From NCBI GenBank assembly GCA_000004695.1, contig CM000150.2:1056001-1120000 (forward strand): a stretch of 64,000 nt of DNA. Reading direction: 5' to 3'. Within the stretch, counting starts at the first letter, position 1. Each line of letters starts with the position of its first letter. Source of the stretch: Dictyostelium discoideum (Eukaryota). Made by a program: the position numbers and the translations under genes. Under the pieces are notes generated by a model. The model had not been told where the DNA came from. It saw only the letters and a program-made list of their open reading frames with translations, and searched no databases. Shown here piece by piece: positions 3,501-6,500 of this stretch.

Positions 3501-6500
3501 TGATTGTTAATGGGTTAACTTGAGATTGTCCAAATGATGGTATTGATGCTGAACCGAAACCACTTCCAAATGGAGATGATGAATTACTAGAAACTGGTCC
3601 AAATGCTGAAATACCACCACCACTTGGTTGAGAACTAAATGATCCAAAGATTGATGATGTTGGTGTTGATGTATTTTCAGGTTTTGGAGGAGCAAATGAT
3701 GGAGGAGCAAATGATGATGGAGCAAATGATGATGGAGCAAATGATGGAGGAGCAAATGATGGAGGAGCAAATGATGATGGAGCAAATGATGATGGAGCAA
3801 ATGATGGAGGAGCAAATGATGGGGGAGTAAATGAAGATGATAACAATGTAACTTTTGGTTGTTGTTGTTGTTCTTCTTCTTCTTCTGATCCTGATTCTAA
3901 TTCTTCATGTGATTCTGAATCTGAATTTTGATCATCATTATCTTGAATTGTATTTGACATTTCTTTAAGCGACATTGGGTCATCAGATTTGGTTTCAGTT
4001 GACTTAGTTCCAAATAATGATTGCGATGGTTGGATGGTTGTTGAATTGCCACCAAATAGTGATGAAGAATTGTTATTACCACTGCCAAATAAGTTTGATG
4101 GATTACTATTGTTATTGTTACCGAATAAAGTTGGTGCGTTGAAAGTAATAGTATTACTGCCGCCACCACCAAATAATTTAGAAGAGTCAACAGCAGTTGA
4201 AGTTGTTGGTGGTGCATTGCCACCAAATGCAGTTGGAGCAAATATTGATGATGGTTTAGTATTTGATTCAGAAGCTGGTGATTCAAATTTGACATTCTTT
4301 GGTAATGGGACCATACAAACGGAGCAGCTTTTTTCTTTTTCTGAATTTTCAGTTTCACAACATAAACATTTCCAAATTAATTTACCTGATGGAGTTGATG
4401 TTGATGATGGAGCAGTTTCTTCAACTTTAGATTCAATTTTGGATTCAGCTTTAACTTCAGTTTTAATTTCAGTTTGTTTAGTTCCAAATAATGGTGTTGA
4501 TGTACTATTACCACTGCCAAATAAGTTTGATGTATTATTGTTACCAAAAAGATTTGGTGCATTGAAAGTATTACCGCCGCCACCACCGAATAGTTTTGAA
4601 GATTCAACAGCGGTTGAAGTTGGTGGTGCATTACCACCAAATGCAGTTGGAGCGAATAGTGATGATGGTTTAGTATTTGATTCAGAAGCTGGTGATTCAA
4701 ATTTGACATTCTTTGGTAATGGGACCATACAAACGGAGCAGCTTTTTTCTTTTTCTGAATTTTCAGTTTCACAACATAAACATTTCCAAATTAATTTACC
4801 TGATGGGGTTGATGTTGATGATGGAGCAGTTTCTTCAACATTAGATTCAGTTTTGGATTCAGCTTTAACTTCAGCTTTAGTTTCAGTTGGTTTAGTTCCA
4901 AATAATGGTGTTGATGTACTATTTCCACTGCCAAATAAGTTTGATGTATTATTGTTATTGTTACCAAAAATATTTGGTGCATTGAAAGTAATAGTATTAC
5001 TGCCGCCACCACCACCACCGAATAATTTTGAAGAGTCAACAGCGGTTGAAGTTGGTGGTGCATTACCACCAAATGCAGTTGGAGCGAATAATGATGATTT
5101 GGTATTTGATTCAGAAGCTGGTGATTCAAATTTGACATTCTTTGGAACTGGAACCATACAAACGGAGCAGCTTTTTTCTTTTTCTGAATTTTCAGTTTCA
5201 CAACATAAACATTTCCAAATTAATTTACCTGATGGGGTTGATGTTGATGGTGATGGAGTAGATTCATTAGCCTTCTTTTCGGATTCCTCAGCCTTCTTTT
5301 CAGATTCCTGAATTTTAACATCAGATTTATTTCCAAATAATGGAGGAGGATTGGTTGTTGAATTACCACCAAATAGTGATGAAGAATTGTTATTACCATT
5401 TCCAAATAAGTTTGATGGATTATTATTGTTACCGAATATATTTGGTGCATTGAAAGTAATACCATTACCGCCACCGCCACCGAATAGCCTTGAAGATTCA
5501 ACAGCAGTTGAAGTAGTTGGTGGTGCATTGCCACCAAATGCAGTTGGAGCGAATAATGATGATTTGGTATTTGATTCAGAAGCTGGTGATTCAAATTTGA
5601 CATTCTTTGGAACTGGAACCATACAAACTGAACAACTCTTTTCCTTTTCTGAATTTTCAGTTTCACAACATAAACATTTCCAAATTAATTTACCTGATGT
5701 GGTTGATGGTGATGGAGTAGATGCTTCAGCCTTCTTTTCTGATTCCTCAGTTTTGACATCAGATTTATTTCCAAATAATGGAGGAGGATTGGTTGTTGAA
5801 TTACCACCAAATAGTGATGAAGAATTGTTATTACCACTGCCAAATAAGTTTGATGGATTACTATTGTTACCGAATATATTTGGTGCATTGAAAGTAATAC
5901 CACCGCCGCCAAATAATTTTGAAGATTCAACAGCAGTTGAAGTTGTTGGTGGTGCATTGCCACCAAATGCAGTTGGAGCAAATAATGATGATGGTTTATT
6001 ATTTGATTCAGAAGCTGGTGATTCAAATTTAACATTCTTTGGTAATGGAACCATACAAACGGAGCAACTTGTTTCCTTTTCTAAATTTTCAGTTTCACAA
6101 CATAAACATTTCCAAATTAATTTACCTAATGGGGTTGAAGTTTGTGTAACATTACTACCAAATGCAGTTGGAGCGATTAATGATGGTTTAGTATTTGATT
6201 CAGAAGCTGGTGATTCAAATTTAACATTCTTTGGAACTGGAACCATACAAACTGAGCAACTTTTTTCTTTTTCTGAATTTTCATTTTCACAACACAAGCA
6301 TTTCCAAATTAATTTACTTGGTGTTGTTGATGATGCAGATTCTTCAGTCTTCTTTACAGATTCTTCAGTCTTCTTTGTAAGTTCATCGGATTTCTTGACA
6401 CCAAAAATACTTGTTGAGGATGGAGTTGATGTCGAACCCATTACCCCATTTGATTGACCAAAAATGCTGGATGAATTTTGGCCAAAAACACCTGTACCCG

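Follow-up and report, generated by a model that had tools for sequence, protein, structure and literature searches.

Human Nup358/RanBP2 carries eight tandem C4 zinc fingers, and the finger number varies across 36 metazoans, with complete loss in one lineage (PMC3635865). In vertebrates these RanBP2-type fingers are part of a giant phenylalanine-glycine (FG) nucleoporin, whose large helical N-terminal domain lies in the cytoplasmic ring of the pore. Nup153, a second nucleoporin with fingers and FG repeats, has four fingers that bind Ran-GDP and belongs to the nuclear basket. Nup358 was long held to be metazoan-specific, with Dictyostelium discoideum listed among the species lacking it, and the amoebozoan assignment was first made in cryo-electron tomography work of 2024 (bioRxiv 10.1101/2024.01.17.575985). 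The present analysis concerns 64,000 nt of D. discoideum DNA (assembly GCA_000004695.1, contig CM000150.2, positions 1,056,001–1,120,000 of the forward strand; hereafter the window), AT-rich eukaryotic DNA with a GC content of 13–36% per 2 kb. A gene on its minus strand, at positions 562–11586, encodes a protein in which zinc fingers alternate with FG clusters. This array is probably the central finger/FG region of a Nup358-like nucleoporin, built by stepwise tandem duplication. The repeats are genuine, and nothing out of the ordinary in a gene that is already known and published.

The gene consists of three exons, at 11546–11586, 11116–11427 and 562–10909, separated by introns of 118 and 206 nt with canonical GTAAG...AG ends, and splicing gives a product of exactly 3,566 aa. 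Exon 3 is a single, very large coding exon of 10,348 nt that holds the whole finger/FG array, as proposed in a first-pass annotation that read the repeats as lying within one exon of about 10 kb. An uninterrupted minus-strand open reading frame (ORF) at 562–10773 comprises 3,403 codons and is open over all 10,212 nt; the two short upstream exons supply 163 residues that are absent from it, and annotation of the locus requires the three-exon model. An exact look-up of the 3,403-aa ORF product returned no match, since splicing makes the actual protein longer, at 3,566 aa. A PDB sequence search with one finger as the query matched chain 00 of entry 9hcj six times. This chain, named 'RanBP2-type zinc finger', is 3,566 residues long. 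The first 198 residues of the spliced product match it perfectly and the first 621 ORF residues correspond to its residues 164–784, so that the identity covers residues 1–198, residues 164–784 and all six fingers. The match is exact over every stretch compared, and the earlier claim of a nucleoporin is thereby confirmed. In the preprint on the nuclear pore of D. discoideum cells in situ, NUP358, C7FZW3 and 'RanBP2-type zinc finger' form one entry (bioRxiv 10.1101/2024.01.17.575985), and chain 00 was equated with C7FZW3 because the two agree in molecule name, in length and in the boundary of the domain. The gene is that of the D. discoideum Nup358-like nucleoporin, UniProt C7FZW3, published as DdNup358 and already placed in the pore.

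The array was delimited by Tandem Repeats Finder (TRF), pattern matches and unit alignment to positions 3964–6315 of the minus strand, and contains 29 of the 73 FG motifs of the whole protein. With unit boundaries set at KLIWKC, it starts with U1 (6124–6315; 64 aa, 192 bp), which is a finger only and has no FG cluster. Five cassettes follow, U2 (5692–6123), U3 (5227–5691), U4 (4798–5226), U5 (4384–4797) and U6 (3964–4383), each of 138–155 aa (414–465 bp) and formed by a finger, an FG cluster of five or six motifs (TAFG, KLFG, NIFG, NLFG, SLFG, PLFG) and a charged spacer. The fingers, named here by their tryptophan, are finger 1 (W1653; WKCLCCENENSEKEKSCSVC) at 6247–6306, finger 2 (W1717; WKCLCCETENLEKETSCSVC) at 6055–6114, finger 3 (W1861; WKCLCCETENSEKEKSCSVC) at 5623–5682, finger 4 (W2016) at 5158–5217, finger 5 (W2159) at 4729–4788 and finger 6 (W2297) at 4315–4374. 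TRF reports a period of 414 with 4.8 copies over 4074–6142 and a period of 192 with 1.9 copies over 5955–6317. The spacing between the fingers of U1 and U2, 64 aa, compares with 58–64 aa in the human protein. The difference from vertebrate Nup358 lies in the other five fingers, each of which is followed by an FG cluster and a charged spacer of about 100 aa.

The same repeats had been described in the first-pass annotation as five to six nucleotide-identical units of about 430 bp at 4360–6330, each with a finger and an NLFG/FG stretch. The copy number agrees with the six fingers found, five of them with an FG-rich stretch, and the cassettes do carry NLFG/SLFG/PLFG-type motifs. The unit length is right for the cassettes and misses the extra 192-bp unit without an FG cluster; likewise, the array is located correctly except at its low end, since U6 reaches about 3964 and a limit of 4360 omits nearly all of it. 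Nucleotide identity, by contrast, is not found. The units are 88–97% identical with indels, and perfect tracts extend to at most 147 bp (at 4246 and 4660), with further ones of 98, 97, 83, 81 and 66 bp. Pairwise identity between the finger-anchored units is 89–96% over aligned columns, with every pair above 80%, and 76–91% when gap columns are counted. Even the wording 'nearly identical' is too strong, as the best pairs obtained with the units re-phased as described below reach 95.8% and 97.1%, and TRF gives 79% matches with 10% indels over the 414-nt period. Finger modules are identical only between U5 and U6 (129/129 nt). A similar case is known from human RanBP2, where no difference separates ZnF5 from ZnF6 in the aligned stretch; structure 7MNT was deposited as 'ZnF5 or ZnF6'.

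The fingers are of the RanBP2 type by pattern, profile and predicted fold, and are predicted to bind zinc. The PROSITE pattern for this finger is W-x-C-x(2,4)-C-x3-N-x6-C-x2-C, and the protein contains six exact matches to W-x-C-x2-C-x3-N-x6-C-x2-C. A profile built from eight fingers, four of D. discoideum and four diverged ones of Acytostelium, was compared with the PDB and scored Xenopus and human Nup358 highest (E=2e-8), followed by the NZF finger of HOIP (RNF31; E=1.7e-5). Further matches include isolated RanBP2 ZnF3–8, FUS, Nup153, ZRANB2, TRABID and HOIL-1L, and nearly all matches below an E-value of about 0.3 belong to the RanBP2-type family. The family fold is a small zinc ribbon in which two beta-hairpins present the four Cys. 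An AlphaFold2 model of the finger, with a pLDDT score (predicted local distance difference test) of 89.2, agrees with it and superposes on Nup153 ZnF2/3, Nup358 ZnF3/7/8 and TRABID NZF1 with template modelling (TM) scores of about 0.8 and root mean square deviations (rmsd) of 0.3–0.6 Å. A Foldseek search of the PDB with this model returned RanBP2-type or NZF fingers as 44 of the 50 top matches; the E-values are weak (0.16 and above) because the domain has just 27–32 residues.

The first-pass assignment of the fingers to this type is therefore upheld by the Cys4 pattern, the reciprocal profile and the fold, even though the D. discoideum fingers formally fail the Pfam profile of the family. PF00641 matches neither the whole protein (E≤1) nor the isolated D. 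discoideum fingers (E≤10). This miss is attributed to limited sensitivity of the Pfam profile towards a finger that is divergent and acidic, because the profile search, the fold tests and finger 2 of Acytostelium, which clears PF00641 with 31.4 bits against a 27-bit cutoff, place the fingers in the family. Pfam additionally assigns DUF6151 (PF19648) to the 794-aa translated array (3964–6345), with 38.2 bits against a 27-bit cutoff. The score sums weak matches to the repeated Cys motif in three stretches and falls to 25.6 on the whole protein; the match is almost certainly a false positive. As Pfam misses the fingers and gives this misleading match, automated annotation could propagate DUF6151.

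When the finger-anchored units are compared, the array looks mosaic. The first 135 nt of U6 are identical to U5, while alignment columns 270–330 of U6 match U2 in full and U5 at just 80%, and run-length permutation tests give P<1e-4 for three pairs of units. A reading of this mosaic as gene conversion was rejected, as window painting, in which each 60-nt window was assigned to its best match elsewhere in the array, showed it to be a phase artefact. The painting yields a staggered chain: the tail of U2 pairs with the tail of U3, the head of U3 with the head of U4 (60/60 nt), the tail of U4 with the tail of U5, and the head of U5 with the head of U6. A chain of this kind is expected where tandem duplication copies an FG tail together with the next finger. 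The units were accordingly re-phased at offset 141 into such blocks, X1 (5551–5982) and X2 (5086–5550) with an A-type FG tail, and X3 (4657–5085) and X4 (4243–4656) with a B-type tail, all on the minus strand.

The re-phased blocks fall into two pairs. X1 and X2 (5086–5982) represent the older resolved tandem duplication, with 95.8% identity and a synonymous divergence (dS) of 0.167. X3 and X4 (4243–5085), which contain the 147-bp perfect repeat, represent a younger one, with 97.1% identity, a dS of 0.076, 12 mismatches and 21 gap columns. Identity between the two pairs is 88–91.5%, with dS values of 0.28–0.44. All these dS values are Nei-Gojobori estimates; nonsynonymous divergence (dN) is 0.022–0.13 and dN/dS about 0.13–0.45. 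Forty informative sites group X1 with X2 and X3 with X4, one favors an alternative grouping and none favors the third. The conflict that is strong with finger-anchored units is thus reduced to 40:1:0, with small residual signals. An older array, two separate tandem duplications within it and later divergence of the copies under purifying selection are enough to explain the data. Ongoing gene conversion, put forward in the first-pass annotation as an alternative to recent expansion, is not needed, because re-phasing leaves 40 sites on one tree with a single site in conflict, and the youngest pairs have dS values of 0.08 and 0.17.

An exhaustive HMMER search of 1.84 billion representative sequences with the N-terminal domain found a sole relative, XP_012748312.1 of Acytostelium subglobosum (E=1.3e-28, 30% identity), a protein of 2,727 aa annotated as 'hypothetical protein', which could be re-annotated as Nup358-like. 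Metagenomes scanned with the cassette and the N-terminal alignment as queries gave no relatives. Word-indexed protein searches, some of them stopped at a limit of 8,000 candidates, provide no evidence of absence: the finger query gave no candidates, which suggests that the protein and its close relatives are not in that database, and one search missed the Acytostelium protein known to be in the collection. The two proteins are laid out alike, with the N-terminal domain, fingers set apart by Phe-rich linkers, an acidic block and further FG-like sequence, and the Acytostelium protein, too, has acidic repeats. They differ in that the Acytostelium protein has four fingers, irregularly spaced by 238, 112 and 94 aa, and that its linkers carry FN, LF and GFTFN motifs in place of the xLFG motifs of D. 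discoideum.

Finger identity is 84–100% within D. discoideum, 28–44% within Acytostelium and 25–34% between the two, with no one-to-one orthology. Units are thus more alike within species than between them, as judged on one distant outgroup. On these values, the D. discoideum array was rebuilt from one finger type after the split from Acytostelium, which is concerted evolution in a broad, long-term sense. The first-pass annotation was right in this respect, in that it proposed a recent expansion, and the array has been expanded or rebuilt in this lineage. Turnover of finger arrays in Nup358-like proteins is therefore seen outside animals as well as among them. A four-finger ancestral array, prompted by the four Acytostelium fingers, was considered and dropped for want of support, since all A-type tails, those of U2, U3 and U6, lie within about 5–9% of each other.

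The N-terminal domain (aa 1–784) is encoded at 8911–11586 of the minus strand, with both introns within the span. It is the published anchor in the cytoplasmic ring: residues 1–780 of Nup358 were modelled, and two copies per spoke were fitted into the cytoplasmic-ring density (bioRxiv 10.1101/2024.01.17.575985). In sequence it has no Pfam match and no PDB match except the protein itself, including when an N-terminal profile was run against the PDB; an N-terminal domain of the Nup153 or Nup358 kind, suggested as a check on the product, is not detectable at this level. The Nup358-type features that are present are the tandem array of six RanBP2-type fingers and the FG repeats, although Pfam Nucleoporin_FG scores 27.1 bits, under its cutoff of 32.2. 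Of the modules of metazoan Nup358, Pfam detects none of the four RanBD1-type Ran-binding domains in the D. discoideum ORF product (E≤1), and neither the C-terminal SUMO E3 (IR1-M-IR2) region nor the cyclophilin domain in the protein. The same three modules are undetected by Pfam in the Acytostelium orthologue, with the Ran-binding domain sought at E≤10. In place of the SUMO E3 and cyclophilin modules, the C-terminal 1,100 aa of the D. discoideum protein consist of FG blocks and acidic repeats. The protein is called Nup358-like, and not a full member of the metazoan Nup358 family, because it is without these modules and because the support from its N-terminal domain is weak.

Several observations weigh against a Nup358-like protein built by stepwise duplication. 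With regard to identity, the Foldseek support of the original authors for the N-terminal domain amounts to a probability of 0.28 and TM scores of 0.47/0.59 against X. laevis Nup358, and Nup358 is the weakest row in their Foldseek table (bioRxiv 10.1101/2024.01.17.575985). The domain has no sequence-level match to any solved Nup358 N-terminal domain, and our AlphaFold2 model of it, all-helical with a pLDDT of 41 and derived from a two-sequence alignment, is too poor for fold comparison. With regard to history, the array is not fully tree-like, as the run test for X2–X3 gives P=0.0004; five synonymous differences are packed into 18 nt of finger 3; U2 and U6, 1,755 bp apart, share a perfect match of 66 bp; and T3-specific changes outnumber T2-specific ones 8 to 1, with four of the eight adjoining an indel. 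These residual signals fit occasional short conversion tracts, which may have occurred, and do not require them. Finally, the outgroup is a single, distant species.

The alternative that best survives is ongoing concerted evolution, in which frequent gene conversion or unequal exchange keeps the units alike, with copy number and sequence in flux in present populations. It would explain why all units are 88–97% identical when the Acytostelium fingers are 28–44% identical among themselves, and it draws on the highly significant run-length tests with finger-anchored units, on the six perfect tracts of 66–147 bp as possible recombination substrates, and on the weak non-tree signals of U2–U6 and X2–X3. 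We consider it unlikely, since re-phasing removes nearly all of the incongruence and since each unit has private substitutions (15, 8, 2 and 5 singletons in X1–X4). The youngest pair, moreover, retains mismatches, gap columns and synonymous divergence that active homogenisation would be expected to erase.

A different identity, that of a Nup153-type nuclear-basket nucleoporin with a central finger cluster and FG repeats in place of a Nup358-type cytoplasmic-filament protein, is more doubtful still. Fingers plus FG repeats are also the layout of Nup153, and the structures closest to the finger model are Nup153 fingers (3gj4_B and 3gj3_B; TM 0.80–0.81, rmsd 0.5–0.6 Å). The four fingers of the Acytostelium orthologue equal the number reported for human NUP153, and both the absence of the metazoan Nup358 modules and the weak Foldseek result for the N-terminal domain point the same way. 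The N-terminal region of Nup153 is largely non-globular, however, and would not fit a 780-residue helical domain such as the one here, which is predicted to be helical throughout. That domain was also fitted by the original authors, in two copies per spoke, into otherwise unassigned density of the cytoplasmic ring, and the finger profile gives its highest score (E=2e-8) to vertebrate Nup358 chains.

An assembly artefact, in which collapsed or mis-joined reads would have given the reference a wrong copy number, is highly improbable. Repeats of 414–465 bp at 88–97% identity are a classic source of such errors, but each unit is unique by its private substitutions and indels, the frame is open throughout its 10,212 nt, and the longest perfect tract, at 147 bp, would be spanned by sequencing reads. 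An ancient array, whose six units would be old paralogues kept alike by purifying selection on the protein alone, agrees with dN/dS values below 1 for all pairs of units (0.17–0.39) and with plausibly functional finger and FG motifs, but is effectively refuted by similar and unsaturated synonymous sites (dS 0.08–0.44), by conservation of the disordered spacers and FG linkers at the DNA level as well, and by the drift to 28–44% identity of the Acytostelium fingers, which were not recently duplicated.

In the preferred reading of a Nup358-like protein that grew by tandem duplication, the helical N-terminal domain would seat the protein on the cytoplasmic ring of the pore, a location taken from the literature, and a tail of about 2,800 residues, disordered for the most part, would project from it. 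Along this tail, six putative Cys4 zinc modules would alternate with clusters of five or six xLFG-type motifs and short charged spacers, the FG clusters probably serving as docking sites for transport receptors. The array would have been built stepwise, by unequal crossover or replication slippage, with an FG tail and the following finger as the copied unit; the X1/X2 copy would date to a dS of about 0.17 and the X3/X4 copy to about 0.08, on an older array with dS of 0.28–0.44. The copies would then have diverged, presumably under purifying selection, and homogenisation is not visibly ongoing. The array shows an FG nucleoporin growing by copies of a module of FG cluster and finger.

The ligand of the fingers is a separate matter. 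An L-V pair is the critical Ran contact in Ran-binding fingers, and a T-F pair is the ubiquitin contact in NZF fingers. The D. discoideum fingers read C-E-T-E-N from the second Cys onward, and the HOIP NZF reads C-T-F-E-N. The compared vertebrate fingers have a hydrophobic pair followed by x-N at this place, mostly L-V and in a few cases Y-V or C-V, except for human ZnF1, which reads C-S-L-K-N. The L-V pair that marks the Ran-GDP-binding subclass of the Nup153/Nup358 type, as in human and Xenopus fingers (C-L-V-x-N), is replaced by E-T, and the Acytostelium fingers have Q-Q, E-A, D-Q and E-V at the same positions. Human ZnF1 is the only finger that does not bind Ran, owing to 'sequence variations at important sites', and the primary Ran-finger interface is a flat hydrophobic surface (Bley et al.).

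The earlier description of the D. discoideum fingers as Ran/ubiquitin-binding finds no support at these positions, where E-T is neither the Ran-type L-V nor the NZF-type T-F. Ubiquitin binding is not predicted from the finger sequences, because E-T stands at the T-F positions of the HOIP NZF. This separates them from the NZF fingers of HOIP/RNF31, TRABID, HOIL-1L and Npl4, which belong to the same superfamily and among which the HOIP NZF is the second-best sequence class of the profile search. The ligand itself cannot be read from sequence. A tentative possibility is that the dictyostelid Nup358-like protein is a Ran-independent version of Nup358 whose fingers recognise a different ligand, the finger-plus-FG cassette being a distinct functional module and duplications in the D. 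discoideum lineage having increased its dosage. The missing Ran-binding domains and the acidic/polar pair in place of the hydrophobic L-V are in line with it. What the six fingers of this amoebozoan Nup358-like protein bind is the sole point of real experimental interest here, and is easily testable.

The plus strand opposite the array contains two long open frames, of 440 codons (3989–5311) and 368 codons (5351–6457). Neither is a gene; both are by-products of the repeat, as the first-pass annotation had stated. The first is the mirror-image translation of the repeat, and the second, which has no ATG, encodes the same repeating peptide. The antisense frame contains one stop in 784 codons across the array versus 98 in 3,449 across the exon. 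Both long plus-strand ORFs are not to be called as genes in annotation.

Other repeats of the gene lie outside the array, and exon 3 as a whole is a patchwork of internal duplications. In-frame repeats on the minus strand comprise a 15-nt unit in ten copies at 3685–3834 (SFAP(P/S) pentapeptides, 92% matches), a 63-nt unit in 2.3 copies at 6505–6651 (SSVFGQ-type FG repeats), an 87-nt unit in 2.2 copies at 7417–7611 (94%) and a 54-nt unit in 2.2 copies at 8021–8141 (92%). A 108-nt (36-aa) acidic repeat, KEKEETLEETKQSIESDKKEDEKEEKLEEIVQSD, occurs in about seven copies at 2432–3332 of the same strand with 77% matches, in a block of 56% D+E+K. A higher-order duplication in exon 3, again on the minus strand, relates 1417–1676 to 3313–3572 (260 nt, 90% identity, 1,896 bp apart); the FG block SSIFGSFSSQPSGGGISAFGPVSS...STATIKTFGDLSK is encoded by both copies. 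In rough outline, the C-terminal 1,100 aa repeat one series twice over: an SFAPP run or its remnant, an FG block and acidic repeats. A 28-aa motif, SIESESDK(K/R)E..ME..F(S/T).IE..(I/V)KP(N/D)(F/L), is present in four copies in the acidic C-terminal third (minus strand, 826–909, 1090–1173, 2215–2298 and 2701–2784); the two upstream copies each end a block of acidic repeats, and the motif looks like a short linear binding motif. Most of intron 2 (206 nt) is taken up by a perfect (TAA)45 at 10911–11045, which reads TTA in the direction of the gene, and by an (AT)16 at 11054–11085 that comes after it; this microsatellite is likely a length-polymorphic marker.

Scans of the window found no tRNA genes and no Rfam matches. 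The neighboring ORFs encode proteins of ordinary eukaryotic kinds, namely a Ctf4/Mcl1 protein (21141–23084), an OTU protease (24926–26242), a TPR+PH protein (30185–33019), a class I PI3-kinase (44286–47459), a SET-domain protein (48198–50228) and a FAN1-type VRR-NUC nuclease (58621–60729).

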